Assembly: GCA_038203255.1 (NCBI GenBank)
Contig: JBBREE010000002.1
Coordinates: forward strand, 1-57,735
Origin: Candidatus Moraniibacteriota bacterium
Lineage (GTDB): Bacteria; Patescibacteriota; Minisyncoccia; Moranbacterales; UBA2206
Reading direction: 5' to 3'
DNA length: 57,735 nucleotides
In this document: piece after piece, positions 19,967-50,911 of the stretch
Position numbering within the stretch: the first letter of the stretch is position 1
How the letters are laid out: the number at the start of each line of letters is the position of its first letter
Notes under the pieces: model-generated
The model's database searches: none
What the model saw: only the letters and a program-made list of their open reading frames with translations
What the model was told of the DNA's origin: nothing
Made by a program: the position numbers and the translations under genes

Positions 19967-20052
19967 ATAACTAGACATCCGGGACAAATCCCAGAGGGAA
20001 AGCCAGTGATGGCTACCGGATTTTCTGACCGAGGCGAAAGCTTCGGTTTTTT
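19967..20052 (+). ncRNA. candidate small structured RNA (about 85 nt) with its own promoter and intrinsic terminator
   Basis: P1 AUCCGG (19977..19982) pairs with CCGGAU (20016..20021). It encloses UCCC-AGA-GGGA and AGCCA-GUGA-UGGCU (a GNRA loop). Next comes the hairpin CCGAGGCGAAAGCUUCGG plus U6 (20029..20052). No + strand ORF lies downstream. The family was not recognised. Confidence 0.45.
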
Positions 20053-20056
20053 CGTT

Positions 20057-20599
20057 TTATTGCATAATGATAATAATCTTTTTTTCGAGAGTTTTGTAAT
20101 ATTTGGAAAATCTTTTATCATTCTTTTTATCGAAATATGAACGGCAGAGTCCGGCAATCATATCGGCCAATCTTACACACGCAATCTGATCATCGTTAAC
20201 AGTCCTGACTTTCCTTACAGAAACTCCCTTGTCGCGCAGGACTTTTTTAATTTTAAGACCATACCACTTGGGTTTTTTACCATCGATAAAAATATTGGAG
20301 ATGTTTCGTTCAATCGCCATATGAGAAAGAACTCTTTCTAGTTCTTTAGACGGATTAACAGGATTTTTAATAATAGCAATCTTCACTTTGAAATCCAATT
20401 TCAAAACCTCCTTTATGAATTTCTCCTTAAATTTCCAAGCAACCTCCGACCAATGAAATTTTTTAATCTTTAAACTCCTTTCGATTTCAGAGATCTTTTT
20501 TTCGACTAAATTAAATTCTTCAATCTCAACATACACCAGGGCAAAAGAAGAATGATCAACTTTTTTATGAATACCGGATTCATCAATAAAAATGTTCAT
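20057..20599 (-). CDS. DUF3800 family protein
   Basis: 180 aa; N-terminal MNIFIDESG and C-terminal VRLADMIAGL match the DUF3800 signature as I recall it. Confidence 0.7.
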   Translation of the reverse strand: MNIFIDESGIHKKVDHSSFALVYVEIEEFNLVEKKISEIERSLKIKKFHWSEVAWKFKEKFIKEVLKLDFKVKIAIIKNPVNPSKELERVLSHMAIERNISNIFIDGKKPKWYGLKIKKVLRDKGVSVRKVRTVNDDQIACVRLADMIAGLCRSYFDKKNDKRFSKYYKTLEKKIIIIMQ

Positions 20600-21044: not shown

Positions 21045-22223
21045 TCATTCAGTGGGAACACCCAATGGAGAATCGGGCGTGACCACAGGTTCAGCCGGCG
21101 CGTCAGAAGACACTATGTCTTTCTCGGCGCTCACTTCCGCCGACACCTCATCTTTGTTTTCTTCTTCCTCTCCAAGCTGACTCGCATCAGAAGAAATTCC
21201 ACTGTCTGTTTTTTCATCAATCTGGCTCACAAGACTTTCCACATCGTCTGCATTTTTCCAAATATCCATAGATTCTAGAAATTTTATAGAACATTTCTTT
21301 TCATCCCCTTCTCCAAAACAGACTTCCGTATAATATTTCTTAAACTCTTTTTTCTCTTCATCTTTAGTGTTTTTTTCGCCGGGAGTCGGGACTGGCTGGG
21401 TCCAATCTCCTGTGCCGTCTTTTTCACGAGCGAAAGATCTTCCCGGTGAGGCGTCTGAATATTCATACCAATCTAACAAATCATTCTCTCCGTCCGAAAG
21501 TTCCAGAGTGTCTTTGTCTTCGTTTAAATCGCAACCAATCAGATAGACCAACAAAAATCCGTGTGGACCAATTTTGGTTTCATGCTTATTCGTATTGTCT
21601 TTACTGATTTTAAAGCTATTGCCCTTAGAAGAAGAATGTTTAATTTTCCAATCCTTTACATCAACTTCTTCCTCTCCATTGTTATACAATTCCACCCATT
21701 TATTCCCATTACCTTCCGGACACATATCTTTTTTCCAACATTGCGCCGGATTCGGCATAAATTCATTAAGCACCACTCTCCAAGTAATCGCAAACTTTTC
21801 ACTTTCCCTTTGACCTTGCAAATTATGCGAATCGGTCGCTTCAATTCTCACATGACAATCATTGGAAATTTCCGCCGGCACTGTCCAATCGTAGTGTCCC
21901 GGATCATTGGAAAATTCTTCAATCTTTTTATATTCTCCCGCCCCACACGCATATTCCAATTTCAAATCTGTTACTTTAGCCTCCGGATCACTCAATTTAA
22001 TTTTCCAGCTCAATTTTTTTTCCTCTCCCACTTGCCACGCATTGTCCCCATCAAAATCCTCAAAAGAAATGCTCGGCGTCACCCACCAGCCTGCCGAAAA
22101 ACCAGTGTTGCCCAATCCGGACGTGGCCGAAAAAAAAGAATCCGTTTCCGGCACACGGCCAACATTCAAAGCAACAGCGATGAAAAGTGACATGGCGATG
22201 ATTTTTAGGACAGATTTTTTCAT
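21045..22223 (-). CDS. secreted lamin-tail-domain (LTD) protein with SipW-type N-terminal motif and acidic C-terminal tail
   Basis: 392 aa. Signal peptide, then SFFSATSGLGNTGFSAGWW (compare TasA-type AYFSDxxxxxNxFxAG). LTD core: VLNEFMPNPA..KWVELYNNGEEEVDVKDWKI. Confidence 0.7.
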   Translation of the reverse strand: MKKSVLKIIAMSLFIAVALNVGRVPETDSFFSATSGLGNTGFSAGWWVTPSISFEDFDGDNAWQVGEEKKLSWKIKLSDPEAKVTDLKLEYACGAGEYKKIEEFSNDPGHYDWTVPAEISNDCHVRIEATDSHNLQGQRESEKFAITWRVVLNEFMPNPAQCWKKDMCPEGNGNKWVELYNNGEEEVDVKDWKIKHSSSKGNSFKISKDNTNKHETKIGPHGFLLVYLIGCDLNEDKDTLELSDGENDLLDWYEYSDASPGRSFAREKDGTGDWTQPVPTPGEKNTKDEEKKEFKKYYTEVCFGEGDEKKCSIKFLESMDIWKNADDVESLVSQIDEKTDSGISSDASQLGEEEENKDEVSAEVSAEKDIVSSDAPAEPVVTPDSPLGVPTE

Positions 22224-22232
22224 TTTTCTTTA

Positions 22233-22775
22233 TTATTCTATTGATTCATTCTCCTTTTTCTTTCTACGTTCTTCCACTTTCTTTCTGATTTCTTCCTTAA
22301 TCTTATTCAGTTCGTCGTAAATTATAATCACAGACGGCACGATGATAAGGAGGATGAGTCCGGGAGTGGTTTTAGCATATCCCACCGGATAACCGAGAAA
22401 AGGGATGGCCACCAATTCTCGCCCGATGATTTTATCCCTGGAAAAATTGGCATTATCCTGAGCATTATTGGCGTCTCCTTTGGTGTCAAAAAATGTTTGG
22501 CCATCTTTTTCCTCTTTTTTAACGATGCGATGAGTGATGGTCACCTTTGGATCAATGGTCGTGCGCGTCACCACGTCTCCGATGCCATAGTCGCCAAAAG
22601 GTTTCACAAAAATGAGGCTCCCGGTGTGAATGGTCGGCTCCATGGAACCAGACTGCACCACAAAAAGTTTATAATTTCCGGGGAAAGGCATAAAGGAGAA
22701 AATAACAAAAACGCCGAGAATAACCAAGAGTCCTAGAAGAGTATTGATTATGATTTTGAAAATTTTTGAAAACAT
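22233..22775 (-). CDS. sipW: signal peptidase I, SipW/archaeal type
   Basis: 180 aa; N-terminal TM; VVQSGSMEPTIHTGSLIFV catalytic Ser box; GDANNAQD. Confidence 0.8.
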   Translation of the reverse strand: MFSKIFKIIINTLLGLLVILGVFVIFSFMPFPGNYKLFVVQSGSMEPTIHTGSLIFVKPFGDYGIGDVVTRTTIDPKVTITHRIVKKEEKDGQTFFDTKGDANNAQDNANFSRDKIIGRELVAIPFLGYPVGYAKTTPGLILLIIVPSVIIIYDELNKIKEEIRKKVEERRKKKENESIE

Positions 22776-22844
22776 AAATTTTATCTATTATTGAAATAAT
22801 TTTCTCTATCGATTGCACCCCGTGAGATGCAATCTAAAAGGAAA

Positions 22845-23444
22845 CTAAATTTGATCAAGACCAAAAATAGTGTCAACAACTACATTAGATCCCATAATAT
22901 CATTTCCTGCTTCAGTAGGTACTGACCACTCAATTTTAACACTAGCCAATTTACCTGGGGCGCTACTATTCTCTGTATCTCCGCTCAGTTGACCAAGATC
23001 ATGAGTACTATTATTCCAAGCTGTCAGAGGGCCACTAGCGATAGCTGTATTAAAAGTTCCGTCATGATTAGAATCGAAAGACACAGTCAAATTCATATTG
23101 TGATAAAGAGGAGTGTCTTCACGCACATGAAACTTAATCGTTGCGTTAGCAGCAACATTTCCAACATTCTTAATGTCTAAAACCTGCTCGCCAAAGCTAC
23201 CTGGTCTAGCGTTCAGGTTGCCTCCGAAAGGATTTCCAAATCCATTAGTTTCGGCAAGATTAATAGTATTAACCCAGTCATATCCGGTTGGAGATGCGTT
23301 TTGATCTATCATTAGTGCCATACTATCTGTATTAGAGAATGTACTGCCCAGAACAGAACCATCCTTGTGATAAGCTGCATAAGTTGCTCCACCAGCTATG
23401 GCGGCAATAGCAACTATAAACATTAAGCTTTTTAATATTTTCAT
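22845..23444 (-). CDS. TasA/camelysin-like secreted protein (divergent paralogue)
   Basis: 199 aa; signal peptide ..AIAGGATYAAYHKDGSVLGSTFSNT, a weak SipW-type motif. Confidence 0.55.
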   Translation of the reverse strand: MKILKSLMFIVAIAAIAGGATYAAYHKDGSVLGSTFSNTDSMALMIDQNASPTGYDWVNTINLAETNGFGNPFGGNLNARPGSFGEQVLDIKNVGNVAANATIKFHVREDTPLYHNMNLTVSFDSNHDGTFNTAIASGPLTAWNNSTHDLGQLSGDTENSSAPGKLASVKIEWSVPTEAGNDIMGSNVVVDTIFGLDQI

Positions 23445-23587
23445 AATTTGTTTTTTATTTATTTAGATTAATTATTTACCCAGTTAAATTCCGTACTCGG
23501 ATTATTTAACTATGGGTTTTTGAACATTTGAGGCTGTTCAAACCTTCGATCTTTAATTTTTTGGCAAGAAAAATTTCCTTGCTCTAC

Positions 23588-23613
23588 TTGTAACGTACCA
23601 TGGTACGTTACAA
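23588..23613. repeat. 26-bp perfect palindrome TTGTAACGTACCATGGTACGTTACAA
   Basis: Read directly. The core ACGTAC-CATG-GTACGT matches the ACGTAC-N4-GTACGT sites at 45490..45505 and about 2775..2790. Confidence 0.9.
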
Positions 23614-23625
23614 AAAGAGATTGGA

Positions 23626-24246
23626 TTATCTGATTTGACTAGCCACAAATGACAAGTCAAAAGTTGCAGTTGTTCCTTGATATCCATTGCCCATATCTGT
23701 CGGCACAGTGTAATCGATAATAATCAAATCATTTTCTCCGGCAGGAATAGTAAAATTCGTAACTCCCTGATTATATTGCATCGCGCCACTGCTCATTATG
23801 TCTACCGGACCAGAAATTAAATAATTGTTGATTGCCTTACCACCGGTATTCCAATCGGGAGTAAAGTAAGCATTAGAAGAACCATTACTGTAGCCAATAA
23901 TAGAAGTTTTGATCTGACCAAGCAAATTACTGTCATTTTTAGTAACGTTAGTAGCTTGAACAGTCAAAGACCCGATGTCTAAAGTACCAGAATTATGCAG
24001 AGTAATCCACTGTCTCATTGTATCTCCAGGCTTGAGGTTCTTAAAGACAACGGGAACTTCAGTCCTTACTCCAACGCCACCACGAATATAATATGTCTCA
24101 TCACCCGTAGCTTCAACGTTAAGTGTTCCAGTTGAAAAAGTTTCTCCAGAAATAGTCGCCGTGTCACTAAAATATGCGCGAGTCGCTCCAGTAGCAATCG
24201 CACCGACGGCACAAACTACTATTAAGCTTTTAATTATATTTTTCAT
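23626..24246 (-). CDS. TasA/camelysin family protein with canonical SipW-dependent signal peptide
   Basis: 206 aa; AVGAIATGATRAYFSDTATISGETFSTGTLNVEA matches the SipW-cognate signal / TasA N-terminus. Confidence 0.75.
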   Translation of the reverse strand: MKNIIKSLIVVCAVGAIATGATRAYFSDTATISGETFSTGTLNVEATGDETYYIRGGVGVRTEVPVVFKNLKPGDTMRQWITLHNSGTLDIGSLTVQATNVTKNDSNLLGQIKTSIIGYSNGSSNAYFTPDWNTGGKAINNYLISGPVDIMSSGAMQYNQGVTNFTIPAGENDLIIIDYTVPTDMGNGYQGTTATFDLSFVASQIR

Positions 24247-25255: not shown

Positions 25256-25279
25256 TAGAGGACTCTATAGAGTCCTCTA
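25256..25279. repeat. 24-bp perfect palindrome, copy 4 (overlaps the AbiEii stop codon)
   Basis: Read directly. Confidence 0.95.
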
Positions 25280-26074
25280 AATTACACCTTCCGAAACACC
25301 CCTTGCATTAACGCCGATCGTTCCGACATCAATCCCCTCAATCATCTCTTCTATTTTTTGATCTTCGACCACTTCTGAATAGTGGATACTTTGCGATTCT
25401 CCAATTTTTTCTTGCTTGGCTACTGCCCAGTTAGCCAGTATTGATTTTTGGCTTATGGATTTACGCACTTCTTTTTGTTTAATAAGCTTCGTTATTTCTA
25501 ATAGATTTATCTTGAAATTTTTGAGAATCTGAAACAAATCATAGAAATCTCGATACCTCGCTCTATCATTGGCGGCTCTGATTTTTTCAGCCACTATTTC
25601 CCGGACATCCATAACATTCACCTTGGTATCAACTTTCCAAATGTTGTTGTATGTCATTTCCTGAGTCGGTAAGATAACATTCTGGATAAAATCAATTTCC
25701 AGCTTCAGAGAATTTGGCTGTCCAAGCGGCCCATCATATTTCAATCGCTCCAATTTAATGGTCGCACCGGAAACATATTCTTTTTTGATTTCCAAAAAAG
25801 AATAAGGCTCGAATATCTTTTTCACATCTTCTAACTTTATTTTTGGATCTAGCGAAGTAAAATCCAAATCTTCAGAAAAGCGCATCTGATCGAGATAGCA
25901 GTGATGGATGGCCGTTCCACCCTTAAAAACCAGCCTGTCTCGAAGCGGAGAATCGTAAACAATTTTGGAAACAATTGCCAGAAAATAGTCCTTCTCGGCG
26001 ATGGCCAGAGGATATTTTAAATTTTTTCTGTTTATAACTTCCAACTCCCTCTTAGAAAGTGAAACTAAATTCAT
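25277..26074 (-). CDS. AbiEii/AbiGii-family nucleotidyltransferase toxin (DUF1814)
   Basis: 265 aa; LVFKGGTAIHHCYLDQMRFSEDLDFT nucleotidyltransferase motif. Confidence 0.8.
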   Translation of the reverse strand: MNLVSLSKRELEVINRKNLKYPLAIAEKDYFLAIVSKIVYDSPLRDRLVFKGGTAIHHCYLDQMRFSEDLDFTSLDPKIKLEDVKKIFEPYSFLEIKKEYVSGATIKLERLKYDGPLGQPNSLKLEIDFIQNVILPTQEMTYNNIWKVDTKVNVMDVREIVAEKIRAANDRARYRDFYDLFQILKNFKINLLEITKLIKQKEVRKSISQKSILANWAVAKQEKIGESQSIHYSEVVEDQKIEEMIEGIDVGTIGVNARGVSEGVI

Positions 26075-26856
26075 TTTTTTAATTCAAAATGATTATGATA
26101 GTAGAGTCGCCACTTGGCATTAAACTTTTTACTGTCGTTGGTCATATAACTGCTCCGACCGGCACTTCTCTTCACCAACTCGTACAAATAATCGGAATTG
26201 ACCCCGATTTTATCCAGGAGAAATCCCACAATTCTTTGCACCGTCACTGATTGGTCCCGGCTGAATTCATTCAGCTTGTCCCAATCGAAATTGTTTTTAT
26301 ATTCTCCTAGTTTTTCCAACACCAAATCCACGGAATGTGTCGTTCTTCTAAAAGCGAGCATATCCAAAACGGTCTTTTCCAAAGTGGCAATTTTCACTGA
26401 CCTATTTTCTATCTGCACTTCCTCCCAGCCATAATAATTTCTTTCACTCGCTTTGATGAAATCATAGGATATGCCTTGAATCTCTTTTTTCTTCCGTTGC
26501 TTCATATTAAGAGAAGTGACTGTTTTGATATACTGATCGAATATTTTGTGATATTGCAACGCCGACTCGAAAGACACATAAGAATCGGCAACTAGAATTT
26601 GAGCGATAATAATTTCAGAAATATTAGCCACGCCCCTGGATTCAAGCGTAGTAATGTAGTACGTTCCCCTTTTAATCCTGACTAGCCAGCCATTTTCTGA
26701 CAATTTAGCCACTAGATTTCTGGCTTCCTGCCGGCTCATTTTAGCCTTTAGTTGAGTAAAAATCTGCTCAAAATCAACAATTACCCCATATTCAGCTATC
26801 AGGTTTTCCACTAAATGTAGCTCTTTTTCAGACAATATTGTCTTTTTTGTAATCAT
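26071..26856 (-). CDS. AbiEi-family antitoxin / transcriptional regulator
   Basis: 261 aa; N-terminal wHTH ..ARNLVAKLSENGWLVRIKRGTYYI; 4-nt ATGA overlap with the toxin gene. Confidence 0.75.
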   Translation of the reverse strand: MITKKTILSEKELHLVENLIAEYGVIVDFEQIFTQLKAKMSRQEARNLVAKLSENGWLVRIKRGTYYITTLESRGVANISEIIIAQILVADSYVSFESALQYHKIFDQYIKTVTSLNMKQRKKKEIQGISYDFIKASERNYYGWEEVQIENRSVKIATLEKTVLDMLAFRRTTHSVDLVLEKLGEYKNNFDWDKLNEFSRDQSVTVQRIVGFLLDKIGVNSDYLYELVKRSAGRSSYMTNDSKKFNAKWRLYYHNHFELKK

Positions 26857-27005: not shown

Positions 27006-27926
27006 TTATTTAGCTCGATTAAAACGAAGGGTGAAATAACTGGTGGTTCTGGAGGGTTTCTCTCGGGAGAAATCGAAGGAGTTGCCGTTCCAAACAATTT
27101 CACTCGCCAAGTTTTTCTTTTGAGCATAAAGCAGGCTTGTGGCTAAAGCCGTTGGACAATCAACATTATTATTATCCAAGCGGGCTATTCTTTCGATATT
27201 TTTATCCTCAATTAACTGTTTCGTCTCGGCGTCTTTTTGATCAGAAATTTCTTTGGTCAAGTAGTGAGAGAAATCGGTCGAAAAAATCACTAAACTATCC
27301 TCTCCGGTGTTATCAGAAAGCCATTGACTGAGTTTTTGCGCTTCCTCGATGCCGGCGTGGGAAGTGATGATGATGGGAACTATCTTGGCTTGCGGAAAAT
27401 AGTGCGCCACAAAAGGCACAATAGTGCCGATGGAATGTTCATTTTCAAAAGCGGTAACATTGGGCGTTAAGTGAAAATCGGCCACGACCTGATCAACCAG
27501 ACCCCGATTCACTCGCACTAGTCCAAAAGGCGTTTGCCAAACGGCCTTGGCCGTAGCCAGTGTGTCACTACTGATATTTTCATGATTAGGCCCGATGATA
27601 AAAACATTTTTAACCGTCCTCCCACTGGCCGAACCGATAATGTCCGCGATTTTTTCAGCGACTAAAAAATGATGGGGGGTTATGACCGCGAAAGTGTCTT
27701 GGCGTGGTGTGACTTTCACCTTTGCTATCGTCTCAAGGAGTGTCCGAGTGTCATAGAAAGAATCTTTTTGTGTGATAATGGGCAAATCATTTTTTTCTGC
27801 CACGGTGGTTTCACCCAAAAGAAAAGTGGGATTCTCCCTAGATTTTTGATAACTCCAAAACGCCACCAGAGAGAGACTCACAATAAGGAGTCCTGCGATA
27901 AATTTTATTTTCATTCTCATGTTCAT
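27006..27926 (-). CDS. Memo-like / AmmeMemoRadiSam system protein B homologue with N-terminal membrane anchor
   Basis: 306 aa; ITPHHFLVAE, IIGPNHEN, FSTDFSHY motifs; the start is 2 nt after the A2M stop. Confidence 0.65.
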   Translation of the reverse strand: MNMRMKIKFIAGLLIVSLSLVAFWSYQKSRENPTFLLGETTVAEKNDLPIITQKDSFYDTRTLLETIAKVKVTPRQDTFAVITPHHFLVAEKIADIIGSASGRTVKNVFIIGPNHENISSDTLATAKAVWQTPFGLVRVNRGLVDQVVADFHLTPNVTAFENEHSIGTIVPFVAHYFPQAKIVPIIITSHAGIEEAQKLSQWLSDNTGEDSLVIFSTDFSHYLTKEISDQKDAETKQLIEDKNIERIARLDNNNVDCPTALATSLLYAQKKNLASEIVWNGNSFDFSREKPSRTTSYFTLRFNRAK

Positions 27927-27928
27927 TT

Positions 27929-30900
27929 TTATTCTTGGCTAATGGTTATAGTTTGATCAGAAGAATAATTGATATAGTCAGGGTTGACGGAAGACTGAAT
28001 GATGGCGTTTTCAGCCCGGTACGTGCCCAGAGTTTTCACGCGAGCGTAGTAGCGGATAAAATCTCCACCGCAATAGTTCCTGTCCCAATAACGATCAATT
28101 CTATATTTAACCATCTGACCGTCCGTGTCATACGGGTACCAAGTGTGACAATCAGTCTTACCGCTGGGGTCATAGGTTCTAGTGACTGGCGCTAGACCAC
28201 TTGGCAAGATGTCCGTGATTTGATAGTCCCCTAAAATGGCGTTGGTATAGAAATTCGGGTAGAGTCGCACTTCGACCATATCATTTTGCGAAAAATGATC
28301 GGTCACTTCGCCATTGACCAAATATTCTCGCTTAAGACTAATGTCCTTATCTTTTTCGACAGTCGCCGGATCAAGTGGCAGGGTGTAACGAGTAGAAATC
28401 CCTACGTCGCCGGTGACAGCGGTAAATTTGACCTTATCGGCCATTTCTGAGGGCAATTGGAAGGAGTAGGAAGAGTCGGTCAATTTAATTTCCTTTTTTT
28501 GACCATCCAGTTCATAACTCACTCCGGCCGGACTCGGTTTGACTTGGGTCAAGCGACGGCTCAAAAAATTAAGTTTTTCCAGATTGAATAAATTTTCGCT
28601 ATTTTTATATTTCCCATACAAAAGTTGATTGCTCACCACATAATCAAATAGTCCGTCCGCTTCCGGTGTTTCCAGACACGCCGACAAAACGGAAGCCAAG
28701 GCAGTCGCTTCAAAAACTTGATCCAAGTCTTCACTGGCACGGATGAGCATCTGAGGAGCTTTCTTTTGCCCGTATTGCCCGAGCACTTCATAATATATCT
28801 GCCGAGCGCGGGTTTCGTCGCCTAGGTCAAAAAGAGCTTGTGCCAATTGCAGTTTTCCTTTGGCATCAATGCCGTCATAATTGAGCCAAGAATATATGCG
28901 GGGCAAAACCGGTTGTCTAAGTTCTGCCAAACCGAAAAGGGCGGGGCTGATTTCTTCCGGAGTGCTGTTTTTATGTTCTAGAATTTTGAAAAAATATTGA
29001 GCCAGGGACTCTTGATCAAAACCCTTAGCACCGGAAGAAGCCACTCTAGCGGAAAGATCCAAATCGTCACTGCTATAAGGCAAAAGGGAAATCCCTCCGG
29101 TGGTCAGCTGATAATCGCTTGGGCGAAAATTAGGAGCGAAAGTTTCTTCTTGATAATAGCTCCCGAGCAAATTGCGCGCTTCTTTGGAAACATATTTTTG
29201 ATCAATCCGATCGCCATAAGACCAACTCAACTCTTGTAAGGGTTGATAGAGTTTATTTGCCCCTAAGTCACTCAAAACCACAGCGAGTGGCAATTTATTC
29301 AAAGCTTCCACTTTTGTTTCCAGACTGAGCTTCTCCGTTTTAGCCGATTGCGCTTCCATACGTGAAGAGACAACTTCAAGTGGCAACTTAATGGCGTCTT
29401 TTCCCTTGGCCGATTCCAAGCTGTAATTTATTTCATGCCTCCCCAGTTTCAAATCCGGCAGGGGGAAATAGGCGCCCGCGAAAGCTTGAGCGAAGAGTTG
29501 GGCGGATTTTTCCAAACTTAAAGTAGGCGCCGACACCGTGAACGCCACTTTGTCCTTTGAATTAAGGGCTGTTCCGTAGGCGCGCAGTCTTGCCACCGGT
29601 TTATCCGCCAGCAAATATTGGTTTCCGATGGTCACGTCAGCAAACACCGGTAAAGAAACCGGCAATTTGGTGGTGCTCACTCCGGCTTCCATTTCTCGGC
29701 TGATAGCTTGAGAAGTAATCCGCCAAGAAGTCAGGTTGTCAGGCAGTTTAAAAGTAACCTTAGCTTCTCCCTGGGAATTTGTTCTGACTACTTTGAATAA
29801 AGCTGCGTCGGTGAAAAATTCTCGTGGTCCGCCACCTTTCTCTTCGTTGTGAACATAAAAACCGCCGGCAAAAAAAGTGTGTTGGGGATCGATTCTCAAA
29901 TTATAAACCGGAATTATTTCGTGGTCATAGGTGATGGAATTAATTTTCACTTTCTCTCCTTTAAGATTAAGTAGCCAATCTCCTTCTTTCAAAAGACCGG
30001 CGTCGGTAAAGCGTCCATTGGAAAACATCTGATGCTCCGGAGTGACTTTTAAATTATGATTTATAATCAGATACTCGGCCACAACGTGACGCCAAGTGTC
30101 GGTCACTTCTCCTTGCACGATTGCTTTTTCCAGCGGATCGCTCAGCGTCAAAACCTTGTCGCCCTTTTGCACTTTTTCAATCGGCTTTTCACTGCCATCT
30201 GCCATACTAATCAGCGTACCGGCTGCAAAACATCCGCCTTTTTCGGCGCCCATACTTGCGAGCATAGAATTGTAGTGAGTTTTCCCCGCAAGCAAAATTC
30301 CTGAACCGACACTGGCATAAAGAGTGTCGAGTGGAGTGGCCTTGTCATCTGCCACGGCGTAATAGGCTTCGTCCACCAAATTAAGATTGACTTCCGCTTC
30401 CACCGGGGTATCTTTTTTGTTTTTAAGTTTGACGGATAAGGTAACATCCTCTCCGGGTCGGTAACTTTTTTTGTCCGGAGTCACATTAAGATTAAGTTCG
30501 CTGTCACTATAGCGATACCTTGCTTGTTCTCCTGAATAGCTGTCAGCCACTGCGTCATAAGTCACGCCGTTAAAATAGACAGCGGAGAGATTGACGTCCG
30601 GAATGTCTTCTCGCGAAAATTGAAAACTATATTCCGGTTTATCGGAAAGTGTATAATTGCGCAATCCATTTTGCAACTGCATAAATAAATAGCGTCCCTT
30701 AACCTCCGGCATAGCTTCATCATTTTTTTTGAAAATAGCTTTCACTTCGTCACCTAGGGAGAAATCGGTGTCGGAAAGTTCCAAGCGGTAATAGCGATAA
30801 TCCCAATTGGAATACTGGCTGACAAATTTTCCGTTGTAGTAGTATAGATATTGACTGTAGTTATCATAATGACCCTCGCGATCATAAACGCGATATTTAA

Positions 30901-33427
30901 TCTGGTAGGAAGTTTCCGGCACCACCGCTTGCGAGAAAACATAACGGCCGTTCTTATCAGTACTATTAGAGAAATTACCCACTTCTTCTTCGACTTTTGC
31001 ATAATTATAAGTCTTATAAGTTTTTTTATTGATGAAATCATACTGGGTTCCGGTTTCATTCTTTTCATAGGTCGTCCTAATGATTTTACCCTCCACTTTC
31101 ACGCCATTCGCTGGTGCGTCTCCTATATTTTGATTATAGTAGTTCCCATCTTGCGCCAATTTTTCCAAATCGATAAATCTCACTTGCATCTTTATTTGAG
31201 CTTCTCCAGCTTTAGGATAGGTGACCTCGGACCTGGCATAAGTACGCGCACCATAAGCTCGCAGATCCATTTCGGCGGTTATCTCAGAAAGTTCACTGTT
31301 TTCCGGCACGACATTTAAGTTTTGATAACTGGGCCAACAGCTATAGTCTTTGGTGCAATCCGTATATTCCTTAGAATAAGTCAGCTGAGCCTCCCCGTCT
31401 TCATTCGTGGTTACTTTTTGATCTCCTTCCGGCGTTTTGAGAATTAATTTCAAATTAGGCACCGGTGTCCCTTCGAAAAAATTCGCCTTGAGTTTTAGGT
31501 TCACTGTGTCCCCCGCGAAAAAAACTTTTTTGTCAGGCGTCAAACTCAAATCGAAAGCTGGCTTAGTGTAGGCTTTGATACTCAAATATTTACGTTGAAT
31601 AAGTTTATCCCCCACCTTTATCTCTAAGGTATAATAATCCGGCCGAAGATCGGCAATCTTAATTTCACCTTCAAAAGTATCAAACTGCGACAAAGAAATT
31701 TCCTGTTCGGTGATGCTGACCGGGTGGTAATAATAATCCACGTAGCCTTCCTTATACAGCGTGACCGTCACCTTGTCTTTCACTTTGTCTCCGGTACGCG
31801 CTTTGACCAGCCCCCAATATTTAATCGTATCGGTGGTTTGATAGCGTGGCCTGTCGGTATAGAAATAGCGCCAATAATCATCCGCGGCTTCCGGCTTGTT
31901 CCACCAAGTACTGCGCAAAACTTGCGAGGCGGGAGTGATGACGACACTGTCCCCCTTGGAAATTTTGAAATAGAAATTTTCTTTCTGGGTGTTTTCTTCT
32001 TGCGCGTAGGCTAAAATTTCTGAGGGAGTGGAAAATTTAGCCACACCTTCCTCGCTAGTTGCAAATCGTTTGTCAGTCCCAACCAGTTCCACCTCAGCTC
32101 CGGCTATGGCCTTTTTACTTTTGGCACTATTAGCCCAAACAAGCGTCTGGGTCTTGGTAATATTATAATAAGCTGTCAGGTCACTAACTTGAATCCAAAC
32201 CTGAACCTTAGCATCTCCGTGGGAAAGCTCTGCCAAATAGAATCCTTCCGTCAAGGGAGTGGGCAACTCGATATATTTTTTATCAGCATTAGTCTTAATT
32301 GGAAGGTTAAGGGAGTTAAGCTTAGAAAGAGAAGTGGTGTCCAATTTAAATTGTTCTTTAGCAAAAGACCACCATGGCAGTTTATCTCTTTGGCTCAAAG
32401 CAGTCATATATTCCCGCCAAGAAGAAAAACGAAAAACAGCAACGTCAAGACTTTCAGCAAAAGTGCCAACGGAAACCTGAATGACTGGTGGCTGGTCGGC
32501 CGTCGTTTCTAAGGTCTGGTCATAAATGTTAAGCTGACTGGCTCTATCCATAGCATCTCTTACTTGCTCTGTTTCGAAACTAAAAGTATATTCTTCCGCC
32601 AAGGTTTCCCCTGATCCCACTAGAGGCATTCCTTTTTTAATCTTAACCGTATAGAGTGTTTTAAAAGCCAGCTTTTCTTGCGGAACAAAAACCAAGGTTC
32701 GTCCATGATGCTCAAATGAACCGGCGACTGAGGGAGACATCTCAAAATAGTTTTGCCAATCCTTGAAATTATCATAAGTAAAGGTTATTTCAACCCCACT
32801 ATCCACCGGCACATAAGTTCCTTGTTCTCTGGGAATGCTGTTAAGCACCTTAAAATTATCTTTAACTTGATAGGCCCAAGAATACATCTGCCCGGAAGAA
32901 GCCAGATTGGCTAAACTTACCTTGAGAAGAGTACTGGGAGGCAGAATTTTCTCCGGCAGAATTTTCCAACTGGTGTCTGACAATTTTTGGAGCGCATAAG
33001 AAACATCCGGCTCCATTTTGAGGTGCTCTTTAACCGCGCCCTCCCCCAACGCTTCCTTACTCTCAAGAATGTAGGCGCTATCAGCCGAAACTCCCAGCGC
33101 GTCCTCTTTTTCTGCCTTCAATTTGAATTCGTCCTTACTCTCAGTTTCAAAGGCCATCTTTAAAAAACCGGAAAAAAAATCGTGGGGTGGTAATTTTTTT
33201 CCAGCTGAATTTTGCGTATTGCTCAATTTTTTGAGCAAGTCAGCTTTTTTGACATACAAAATGCTCCCCGTCAAAGCCAAAATTAAAATAAAGACGATCG
33301 TAGCCGTAATGATTTTTCCGTATTTTTTTTCTAAAATTATTTTCTTAAGTTTCTCAAATAGAAGGATAAATTTATTTTTTTGTGAGGTTGTGTCAGACTC
33401 TTCGGGAAATCTTTTTTGTAATTCCAT
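27929..33427 (-). CDS. membrane-anchored alpha-2-macroglobulin family protein (no thioester motif seen) with embedded Hint domain
   Basis: 1832 aa; N-terminal TM IITATIVFILILALTGSILYV; repeated MG-type segments; A2M-domain signature FFTDAALFKVVRTNSQGEAKVTFKLPDNLTSWRITSQAIS. No CxEQ found by eye. Confidence 0.75.
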   Translation of the reverse strand: MELQKRFPEESDTTSQKNKFILLFEKLKKIILEKKYGKIITATIVFILILALTGSILYVKKADLLKKLSNTQNSAGKKLPPHDFFSGFLKMAFETESKDEFKLKAEKEDALGVSADSAYILESKEALGEGAVKEHLKMEPDVSYALQKLSDTSWKILPEKILPPSTLLKVSLANLASSGQMYSWAYQVKDNFKVLNSIPREQGTYVPVDSGVEITFTYDNFKDWQNYFEMSPSVAGSFEHHGRTLVFVPQEKLAFKTLYTVKIKKGMPLVGSGETLAEEYTFSFETEQVRDAMDRASQLNIYDQTLETTADQPPVIQVSVGTFAESLDVAVFRFSSWREYMTALSQRDKLPWWSFAKEQFKLDTTSLSKLNSLNLPIKTNADKKYIELPTPLTEGFYLAELSHGDAKVQVWIQVSDLTAYYNITKTQTLVWANSAKSKKAIAGAEVELVGTDKRFATSEEGVAKFSTPSEILAYAQEENTQKENFYFKISKGDSVVITPASQVLRSTWWNKPEAADDYWRYFYTDRPRYQTTDTIKYWGLVKARTGDKVKDKVTVTLYKEGYVDYYYHPVSITEQEISLSQFDTFEGEIKIADLRPDYYTLEIKVGDKLIQRKYLSIKAYTKPAFDLSLTPDKKVFFAGDTVNLKLKANFFEGTPVPNLKLILKTPEGDQKVTTNEDGEAQLTYSKEYTDCTKDYSCWPSYQNLNVVPENSELSEITAEMDLRAYGARTYARSEVTYPKAGEAQIKMQVRFIDLEKLAQDGNYYNQNIGDAPANGVKVEGKIIRTTYEKNETGTQYDFINKKTYKTYNYAKVEEEVGNFSNSTDKNGRYVFSQAVVPETSYQIKYRVYDREGHYDNYSQYLYYYNGKFVSQYSNWDYRYYRLELSDTDFSLGDEVKAIFKKNDEAMPEVKGRYLFMQLQNGLRNYTLSDKPEYSFQFSREDIPDVNLSAVYFNGVTYDAVADSYSGEQARYRYSDSELNLNVTPDKKSYRPGEDVTLSVKLKNKKDTPVEAEVNLNLVDEAYYAVADDKATPLDTLYASVGSGILLAGKTHYNSMLASMGAEKGGCFAAGTLISMADGSEKPIEKVQKGDKVLTLSDPLEKAIVQGEVTDTWRHVVAEYLIINHNLKVTPEHQMFSNGRFTDAGLLKEGDWLLNLKGEKVKINSITYDHEIIPVYNLRIDPQHTFFAGGFYVHNEEKGGGPREFFTDAALFKVVRTNSQGEAKVTFKLPDNLTSWRITSQAISREMEAGVSTTKLPVSLPVFADVTIGNQYLLADKPVARLRAYGTALNSKDKVAFTVSAPTLSLEKSAQLFAQAFAGAYFPLPDLKLGRHEINYSLESAKGKDAIKLPLEVVSSRMEAQSAKTEKLSLETKVEALNKLPLAVVLSDLGANKLYQPLQELSWSYGDRIDQKYVSKEARNLLGSYYQEETFAPNFRPSDYQLTTGGISLLPYSSDDLDLSARVASSGAKGFDQESLAQYFFKILEHKNSTPEEISPALFGLAELRQPVLPRIYSWLNYDGIDAKGKLQLAQALFDLGDETRARQIYYEVLGQYGQKKAPQMLIRASEDLDQVFEATALASVLSACLETPEADGLFDYVVSNQLLYGKYKNSENLFNLEKLNFLSRRLTQVKPSPAGVSYELDGQKKEIKLTDSSYSFQLPSEMADKVKFTAVTGDVGISTRYTLPLDPATVEKDKDISLKREYLVNGEVTDHFSQNDMVEVRLYPNFYTNAILGDYQITDILPSGLAPVTRTYDPSGKTDCHTWYPYDTDGQMVKYRIDRYWDRNYCGGDFIRYYARVKTLGTYRAENAIIQSSVNPDYINYSSDQTITISQE
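29846..30232 (-). other. 129-aa Hint (intein / bacterial-intein-like) module inside the A2M ORF
   Basis: CFAAGTLISMADG (block A, Cys1), VTPEHQM (block B, TxxH), FFAGGFYVHN (terminal HN). The next residue is Glu. Flanks are GAEKGG|C and N|EEKGGG. Confidence 0.75.
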
Positions 33428-50759: not shown

Positions 50760-50832
50760 GGGCCCTTAGCTCATTTGGTAGAGCACCTGCTTTGCAAGCA
50801 GGGGGTGATCGGTTCGAGCCCGATAGGGTCCA
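50760..50832 (+). tRNA. tRNA-Ala (anticodon TGC)
   Basis: Cloverleaf read by hand: acceptor GGGCCCT/AGGGTCC with G3:U70, anticodon loop CTTTGCAAG, TPsiC GGTTCGAGCC, A73, no encoded CCA. Confidence 0.9.
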
Positions 50833-50835
50833 CAT

Positions 50836-50909
50836 GGGCGCATAGCTCAGTTGGTTAGAGCGCGTCACTGATAATGACGAGGTCCCAAGTTCGAATCTTG
50901 GTGCGCCCA
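50836..50909 (+). tRNA. tRNA-Ile (anticodon GAT)
   Basis: Acceptor GGGCGCA/TGCGCCC, anticodon stem CGTCA/TGACG with loop CTGATAA, TPsiC GTTCGAATC, A73, no encoded CCA. Confidence 0.9.
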
Positions 50910-50911
50910 CT

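Follow-up and report, generated by a model that had tools for sequence, protein, structure and literature searches.

A protein of the alpha-2-macroglobulin (A2M) family, encoded in a 57,735-nucleotide stretch of contig JBBREE010000002.1 from Candidatus Moraniibacteriota bacterium (the whole stretch is called the window here), carries a Hint domain at the position of its bait region. By sequence and predicted structure this domain is an A-type bacterial intein-like (BIL) domain, and it occupies the same site in a large family of A2M proteins of the Candidate Phyla Radiation (CPR). The interpretation that we favor, with a probability of about 0.6, is that the Hint is a domesticated autoprocessing switch within the bait loop of a CPR A2M, the product of which would be cleaved, spliced or isopeptide-linked in cis or in trans. 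The host protein and its relevant parts are the following:

27929..33427, minus strand: A2M-family open reading frame (ORF), 1832 aa (ORF listing, Pfam, AlphaFold2 (AF2) model, Foldseek)
33251..33313, minus strand: single N-terminal transmembrane anchor, aa 39-59, IITATIVFILILALTGSILYV, with a Lys-rich segment before it (Kyte-Doolittle)
30356..30784, minus strand: A2M bait-region domain A2M_BRD, PF07703, aa 882-1024 (Pfam, 39.1 bits, cut-off 22.7)
30233..30295, minus strand: disordered bait loop before the Hint, aa 1045-1065, made up of the hypervariable YNSMLASMG (aa 1052-1060), followed by G-A-E-x-G-G as conserved N-flank (model confidence, conservation)
29846..30232, minus strand: A-type BIL / PT-HINT domain, aa 1066-1194, 129 aa (Pfam, PDB profile, Foldseek)
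29822..29845, minus strand: C-flank EEKGGGPR, aa 1195-1202, with Glu at +1, the near-invariant Lys1197, a Gly run and the invariant Arg1202 (homologue alignment)
29630..29803, minus strand: A2M domain, PF00207, aa 1209-1266, immediately C-terminal to the bait loop (Pfam, 41.9 bits, cut-off 21)
28550..29260, minus strand: helical domain resembling a thioester domain (TED) but without the thioester, aa 1390-1626 (helices at model residues 751-987; alignment to the relative P0034)

The order of domains along the protein is an N-terminal membrane anchor, macroglobulin (MG) domains, a bait-region domain (BRD), the Hint, the A2M domain, a CUB-like domain, the helical TED-like domain and a C-terminal MG domain. 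In the Pfam search Big_5, A2M_BRD, PT-HINT and A2M exceed their gathering cut-offs, and MG2 falls under its own. The anchor is the only strong hydrophobic segment and contains the top Kyte-Doolittle 19-mer of the protein (mean 2.61); since it follows a Lys-rich N-terminus, the positive-inside rule would place the bulk of the protein outside the cytoplasmic membrane. The earlier note on this DNA had described a membrane-anchored 1832-aa ORF with an A2M domain, which agrees with the ORF listing, the anchor at aa 39-59 and the PF00207 match above cut-off.

An AF2 model of aa 640-1832 (window 27932-31510, minus strand), built with 34 homologues, has a mean predicted local distance difference test score (pLDDT) of 84.5. 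Its top Foldseek matches in the PDB are the E. coli A2M (ECAM, PDB code 5a42, E 6e-39) and the Salmonella A2M (PDB code 4u48, E 4e-36), with weaker matches to complement C5/C3/C4, TEP1, CD109 and human A2M. The ORF is a real member of the A2M family, one without a thioester. The same model fits activated structures of the family better, with a template modelling (TM) score of 0.40 to trypsin-activated ECAM (4ziq) and 0.44 to active CD109 (9fx3), as against 0.27 to native ECAM and Sa-A2M, which may be a modelling artefact (predicted TM score 0.64).

The Hint block, translated as CFAAGTLISMADG...VTPEHQM...FFAGGFYVHN, has Cys1066 as its putative nucleophile, Thr1129 and His1132 in block B (VTPEHQ, aa 1128-1133) and His1193-Asn1194 at its C-terminus. 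The PT-HINT model PF07591 matches the isolated 129-aa block with 53.1 bits (E 5e-14, cut-off 27.7) and spans aa 1073-1194 in the search with the whole ORF, and the N- and C-terminal intein models of NCBIfam (TIGR01445 and TIGR01443) match only below their cut-offs. When a profile of the family was compared with the PDB, the BIL domain of C. thermocellum (PDB code 2lwy) scored 68.5 bits and BIL2 of Tetrahymena BUBL1 (PDB codes 6y75 and 6tmm) 62 bits, as against ~20-27 bits for true inteins. The structural comparison gives the same order: in a model of the Hint with its flanks the core has a pLDDT >90, the top Foldseek match is 6y75 (E 2.6e-12, 28-29% identity, TM 0.80-0.81), 2lwy aligns with a TM of 0.84 at 29% identity, and both rank above all inteins and Hedgehog. 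A six-frame scan of the window with hidden Markov models found no second copy of the Hint.

BIL domains are defined by the lack of a nucleophile at +1, and those of type A terminate in His-Asn (PMC4031507). Type A domains mostly cleave, although splicing is possible through attack of the freed alpha-amine on the N-terminal thioester (PMC4031507; PMC7664689). The block examined here possesses an N-terminal Cys, the block-B TxxH and a C-terminal His-Asn, is not followed by Cys, Ser or Thr, and lies nearer to BIL than to intein models. By sequence and model the insert is thus an A-type BIL / PT-HINT domain, not an intein, and its catalytic residues are intact. The block with Cys1, VTPEHQ and terminal HN, the Glu at +1 and the flanks GAEKGG|C and N|EEKGGG are all present as the earlier note had them. 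Its treatment of the non-nucleophilic +1 residue as an oddity did not hold, because under the published definition this is the expected BIL state and no anomaly, and the domain is nearest to BILs in both sequence and fold.

A canonical intein was considered and rejected, as there is no +1 nucleophile, the intein TIGR models stay below cut-off, no endonuclease is present and the insert does not lie at a conserved site. For a class 1 intein one would look for Cys, Ser or Thr at +1, where Glu1195 is found, and for sporadic spread into a conserved functional site, where instead the domain sits in a disordered loop beside a hypervariable stretch and co-diverges with its host.

The Hint lies, by alignment and model, at the bait-region position directly N-terminal of the A2M domain, as the earlier note had proposed; the protease sensitivity of this bait is a prediction. 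Positions 1193-1270 of the family profile, which start with the last two residues of the Hint, align to residues 722-801 of human A2M (PDB code 6tav), where the bait-region domain ends at Glu729-Arg732 (PMC9181621). In the alignment to ECAM, profile positions 974-1027 correspond to residues 855-908 and positions 1214-1276 to residues 975-1036, so that the Hint is bracketed by residues 908 and 975 and falls within ECAM 909-974. This interval includes the ECAM bait Arg923-Leu942, which is disordered and cleaved by proteases (PMC4498604). Since the match to ECAM is weak over the BRD (domain E 0.017 and 5e-5), the mapping rests on the bracketing together with the stronger match to human A2M.

The AF2 model agrees with this placement. 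The Hint forms model residues 427-555, and its flanks, aa 1045-1063 and aa 1196-1199, are the segments of lowest confidence, with pLDDT <50 at model residues 406-424 (aa 1045-1063), so that the domain hangs in the bait loop between linkers of pLDDT <50. Twelve relatives lack the insert, and most of them show a short Gly-rich loop, GGAE[KM]GG-GGG-R, at the place that the Hint interrupts in the others; because the short loop occurs exactly there, the Hint is a clean insertion into it. The hypervariability of aa 1052-1060, where the top residue reaches a frequency of 0.05-0.30, is as expected of a bait, judged by sequence.

The arrangement is no isolated case but belongs to a large, old family spread across CPR lineages. 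Among 1.84 billion representatives (50% identity), a profile covering the flank, the Hint and the A2M domain had 831 matches with E <1e-30. The best 150 of these 831 were taken into a set of 193 sequences in all, 147 of which span the whole profile, so that the family has at least 147 members; sampling by best match makes this size a lower bound and favors well-conserved members. Most of the 147 homologues are representatives of 50%-identity clusters, and their junctions were read after alignment to the family profile with hmmalign. The Hint is 128-130 aa long in these homologues, without a homing endonuclease. Cys1, the block-B His, the penultimate His and the terminal Asn are present in all 147, and the block-B Thr in 145, with Ser in the other 2.

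A scan of GTDB species representatives yielded 495 related stretches, of which the best 80, chosen partly by an A2M-domain pattern, were inspected. All 80 loci carry the Hint at the same site with the same features, and 79 have His-Asn, the remaining one having no aligned residue at either position. The titles of these records name Magasanik-, Peregrini-, Uhr-, Falkow-, Collier-, Moran-, Gracili-, Sacchari-, Peri- and Parcubacteria, WOR-1 and one Nanoarchaeia bin, so that nearly all are labelled as CPR/Patescibacteria lineages; the titles "Gammaproteobacteria" and "Pseudomonadales" of some bins look like placeholder labels. The insert is not due to chance, because it recurs at the same site in the 147 homologues and in all 80 inspected GTDB loci. 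Two of the Hint-bearing A2M loci carry labels from outside CPR, L049 (DATJQC010000017.1, Nanoarchaeia, DPANN archaea) and L076 (METM01000016.1, WOR-1). Mis-binning could account for this, as could gene transfer among episymbiotic lineages.

In a comparison of 130 full-length members no other segment of the protein is as well conserved as the Hint: the mean top-residue frequency is 0.565 versus 0.394, and of the 55 positions with a conservation of 95% or more, 20 fall within the Hint. Two members are on average 45% identical in the Hint and 30% in the host. The distances of the Hint correlate with those of the host (r 0.52), a value reached in none of 500 permutations, and the composition of the Hint matches that of the host gene (GC content 0.432 vs 0.436; GC at third codon positions 0.442 vs 0.434 and 0.464). 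A recent horizontal acquisition of the Hint was rejected on the grounds of this composition and of the correlated distances. Conservation, co-divergence with the host and matching composition argue for vertical inheritance under purifying selection in a large, old family and against a recent or mobile selfish element.

The borders of the Hint are ...SMGAEKGG before it and EEKGGGPREFFTDAALFK... after it, the latter beginning with the Glu1195 of position +1. Among the 147 homologues the +1 residue is D in 63, E in 33, Q in 26, A in 12, S in 5, T, N and K in 2 each, and G and I in 1 each; that is, D, E, Q or A in 134 and Ser or Thr in only 7. On the N-terminal side Gly stands at -1 in 143 and at -2 in 134, giving a Gly-Gly end to the N-extein in 133/147, and position -3 is Lys in only 47. 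On the C-terminal side a Lys occurs no more than three residues past the junction in 146/147 (at +2 in 112, at +3 in 32 and at +1 in 2). The corresponding frequencies in the family are 0.95 for Gly1064, 0.98 for Gly1065, 0.99 for Lys1197 and 1.0 for Arg1202. The near-invariant Lys after the junction is, in our judgement, the most informative new detail. The Gly-Gly end of the N-extein and the Lys at +2 or +3 (144/147, with 2 more at +1) recall the BUBL type, in which a Lys accepts the thioester; here the N-extein is not ubiquitin-like, and the Lys is at most a candidate acceptor.

Several non-A2M proteins (P0047, P0093, P0106, P0140, P0143, P0053, P0115, P0102 and P0159) contain two to five back-to-back copies of the same Hint subfamily. 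The spacers in these arrays are only K-G, K-G-G or K-G-G-G, giving junctions of the form HN|K-G(-G)(-G)|CF, and because unrelated arrays share them, the post-junction Lys travels with the Hint and not with A2M. If each tandem copy autoprocesses, almost only Lys-Gly peptides or chains would be left.

The window protein has no C.EQ motif anywhere in its 1832 aa, as found with a regular-expression search, and the YPYGCVEQ of the relative P0034, which combines the Hint with a canonical thioester and a Memo neighbor, aligns to SWSYG-DRIDQ (aa 1401-1410, window 29198-29227, minus strand), the very site that the earlier note had matched to the missing CxEQ. In the thioester-less clade the equivalent site is itself conserved as W-S-x-G-D-R-x-D-Q, and this suggests, at the level of sequence, a retained but different role for that spot of the TED-like domain. 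The CLET at aa 1584 was rejected as a thioester, being off the aligned thioester column, with its Cys not kept in the family consensus, and C.EQ matches in P0016 (aa 721) and P0017 (aa 12) are spurious by position.

The canonical YPYGC[VMT]EQT is present at the TED position in 13 of the 147 Hint-bearing proteins, and relatives lacking both the thioester and the Hint also exist. In a neighbor-joining (NJ) tree 12 of the 13 proteins with Hint and thioester form a clade, together with the thioester-less P0178, adjoining the Hint-less type I outgroup; the thioester-less clade comes next, most of its members having the Hint and those without it being dispersed close to the base. From this placement the Hint is probably older than the loss of the thioester and was probably lost several times, although the tree, built from p-distances, is too crude for counting gains and losses. 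The suggestion of the earlier note that the Hint thioester replaces CxEQ fails as a general rule, since 13 relatives have both and others have neither, which refutes a strict "Hint instead of CxEQ"; a role as a second covalent warhead is conceivable, and the tree leaves room for the Hint chemistry having made the TED thioester dispensable.

From the residues and junctions we infer both the chemistry of the Hint and the range of its products. The Hint would fold after export, and an N-S acyl shift at Cys1066 would turn the Gly1065-Cys1066 peptide bond into a thioester. Asn1194 would then cyclise and cut the Asn1194-Glu1195 bond, and a nearby amine or water would resolve the thioester. With an amine, either the epsilon-amine of Lys1197 or the freed alpha-amine of Glu1195, the two halves would be re-joined without the Hint; with water, a two-chain A2M would result. 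Every outcome would remove the 14-kDa Hint from a loop whose integrity controls the conformational switch of A2M, and on this view the Hint would be a switch by which the bait is matured or activated, and not a selfish intein. The self-cleaving bait that the earlier note had suggested is plausible and agrees with all of these findings.

Several considerations weigh against an autoprocessing switch. Activity and product of the Hint-A2M family are predictions from sequence and model, and conserved catalytic residues would be equally expected of any insert whose self-removal the host needs. A protease trap would seem poorly served by a bait that triggers itself, unless the process is regulated or the chain is re-ligated. 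Relatives without the insert have the same Memo partner, so that at least some members can do without the Hint, and the history of the family is drawn from a crude p-distance NJ tree. A more specific proposal is that the BIL makes the bait loop a reactive Gly-thioester that is resolved by the amine of a lysine, either in cis by Lys1197, to give an isopeptide-spliced, branched bait, or in trans by a Lys of a target. In this specific form the proposal is doubtful; by analogy with Tetrahymena BIL2, Lys-directed resolution in cis or in trans is nevertheless a serious possibility.

Taken to its limit in trans, the thioester would serve covalent capture. A protease (or another target) would dock on the neighboring hypervariable bait, attack the Gly1065-Cys1066 thioester with a Lys and become isopeptide-linked to the anchored N-terminal fragment; the bait would break simultaneously and fire the trap, and the covalent step missing in thioester-less members would thereby be supplied. 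We regard this as unlikely. It draws on Tetrahymena BIL2, the closest solved structure, which is reported to join an N-extein with a terminal GG to Lys residues in other proteins (PMC8616854), on the Gly-Gly with which the N-extein likewise ends here (133/147), on the missing CxEQ of the window protein, on the hypervariable disordered stretch 5-14 residues upstream of the thioester site, and on the basal place of the Hint+thioester clade in the crude tree, which is compatible with thioester loss after Hint gain. Against it stand the canonical TED thioester retained by 13 of the 147 Hint-bearing proteins and the existence of relatives that lack thioester and Hint alike. The strict conservation of the Asn and the Lys at +2/+3 favor a cis over a trans reaction, and a thioester lying unprotected in a flexible loop would be lost to hydrolysis unless gated.

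It is quite unlikely that the Hint is a neutral or selfish mini-intein-like passenger, which would splice itself out by the aminolysis of A-type BILs, restore an ordinary bait loop and play no role in A2M, its catalytic residues being kept only because a failure of splicing would cripple the host. A-type BILs are capable of splicing, the excised and re-ligated loop GGAEKGG-EEKGGGPR would resemble the insert-less GGAEKGGGGGRGR, and insert-less relatives have the same gene context. A disordered, hypervariable and indel-tolerant loop should, however, tolerate imprecise deletion, yet 128-130 aa are kept in at least 147 diverged lineages; the Hint is more conserved than its host, at many non-catalytic positions as well, has no homing endonuclease, co-diverges with the host and shares the composition of the host gene, and BILs yield mainly cleavage products. 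That the Hint is a non-catalytic structural or ligand-binding insert, kept in the loop of the mature protein as a bulky domain that might serve, for instance, in docking, is very improbable. The equivalent loop is generally known to accept a domain insertion, the anaphylatoxin domain, in complement C3/C4/C5, and the Hint is well folded in the model (pLDDT >90), but the invariant Cys1, block-B His and terminal His-Asn and the near-invariant Gly at -1 in the 147 homologues are hard to explain without chemistry at the junctions.

Searches of the literature for an intein or HINT with a macroglobulin or bait region returned nothing relevant, in keeping with the earlier note, which knew of no description of the architecture, and those for a macroglobulin with CPR or Patescibacteria returned only a generic mention of membrane proteins with A2M domains. 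One record at NCBI bears the automatic name "polymorphic toxin-type HINT domain-containing protein". Both of the parts, the BIL domain and the bacterial A2M without a thioester, are already known; what is new, no paper on it having been found, is their combination in the bait loop. What BIL domains do biologically has been unclear ever since they were described in 2003, and a vertically inherited BIL at the loop whose cleavage fires the A2M trap would give them a concrete, testable function. A2M is among the largest surface proteins of CPR bacteria, which are thought to live attached to host cells, and a self-arming or self-maturing form would bear on the survival or attachment of these epibionts. 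The A2M-domain membrane proteins of Vampirococcus have been mentioned as possibly defensive (PMC8080830).

How thioester-less A2Ms hold their prey has been described as still unclear (PMC5764988), and a thioester-generating module in the bait is a candidate answer. If a Lys-resolved bait thioester were real, it would represent an intein-derived, ATP-independent covalent capture distinct from the classical TED thioester between Cys and Gln. It would be employed throughout the CPR radiation where symbiont and host meet, and its target in trans might be an attacking protease or a surface protein of the host cell. For engineering, a compact BIL of 129 aa, naturally inserted in a loop, may be capable of extracytoplasmic ligation that needs no nucleophile or is directed by Lys.

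The gene that directly follows that of A2M encodes a Memo-like protein:

27006..27926, minus strand: Memo-like gene, PF01875, with an N-terminal hydrophobic segment (Pfam, E 8e-27)

The A2M-Memo pair also occurs in four related loci, L001 (11562-12473), L003 (5683-6660), L004 (10342-11250) and L005 (10019-10972), and judged by the window and these relatives the pairing is independent of the presence of the Hint and of the thioester. The bacterial A2Ms known so far have other neighbors, in pbpC or mag contexts. In a Pfam search of the 9 neighboring ORFs Memo was the only A2M-associated partner found, no mag-specific model being included in that search. Just downstream of the pair lies an AbiEi antitoxin / AbiEii nucleotidyltransferase toxin pair of the type IV toxin-antitoxin / abortive infection kind (25277-26856, minus strand).

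Small putative secreted or processing proteins are clustered at 21045-24246 on the minus strand, among them:

23626..24246, minus strand: camelysin-like M73 peptidase
22233..22775, minus strand: S24-like peptidase
21045..22223, minus strand: lamin-tail-domain protein

Elsewhere in the window an Rfam DUF3800-II RNA motif (19967-20030, plus strand, 72.2 bits, gathering score 43.2) adjoins a 180-aa ORF (20057..20599, minus strand), and tRNA-Ala(TGC) and tRNA-Ile(GAT) lie 2 nt apart (50760-50910, plus strand). No rRNA was detected in the whole window at Rfam gathering thresholds.

The described hosts of BIL and PT-HINT domains are variable secreted proteins, for example toxins of the CDI/MafB type. 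The Hint of the window shares with the C. thermocellum BIL (2lwy) and with PF07591 the N-terminal Cys, the TxxH, the His-Asn, the lack of a +1 nucleophile, a length of ~130 aa and the lack of an endonuclease, and its host, like those of BIL domains, is a secreted or surface protein. It differs in that the host is of the A2M family and the site is the bait loop, and in the very strong conservation of its flanks, Gly-Gly on the N side and [DEQ]-Lys-Gly-Gly on the C side.

BIL2 of the polyubiquitin-like BUBL1 locus in Tetrahymena thermophila (6y75/6tmm) is reported to make Gly-Lys / K(epsilon-NH2)-C-terminus isopeptide bonds without ATP, to conjugate its N-extein to other proteins and to be activated by Zn (PMC8616854). 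As in BIL2, Cys1 is preceded here by an N-extein with GG at its end; past the junction there is a Lys. Unlike in BIL2, which is eukaryotic and situated between ubiquitin-like domains, an A2M split in two halves provides the exteins, and an isopeptide product would be a prediction.

The Hog domain of Hedgehog has in common with the domain described here the Hint fold (Foldseek matches 1at0 and 6tyy) and the Gly|Cys-Phe junction. Hog performs only the N-S acyl shift and passes the N-terminal fragment to an external nucleophile (PMC7664689). It is without a C-terminal His-Asn and stands at the C-terminus of its protein, while here the His-Asn is invariant and the domain is internal.

The bacterial A2Ms, of type I (ECAM/YfhM, Sa-A2M) and type II (MagD), have the same MG array, BRD, A2M domain, CUB/TED-like domains and C-terminal MG. 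The type II MagD of Pseudomonas, encoded in the six-gene mag operon, is without CXEQ, as is the window A2M, and still traps a protease after bait cleavage (PMC5764988). The window protein departs from these A2Ms in having a transmembrane anchor instead of a lipoprotein signal, a Memo-like neighbor instead of pbpC or a mag operon, and a predicted self-processing domain inside the bait loop.

The Hint-bearing A2Ms resemble complement C3/C4/C5, of which the C5 and C3 structures are among the fold matches, in that a small domain is inserted into the loop equivalent to the bait. In complement this is the anaphylatoxin domain, the removal of which triggers the conformational switch. The difference lies in the agent of removal: an external convertase takes out the anaphylatoxin domain, whereas the Hint inserted here bears its own predicted cleavage chemistry.

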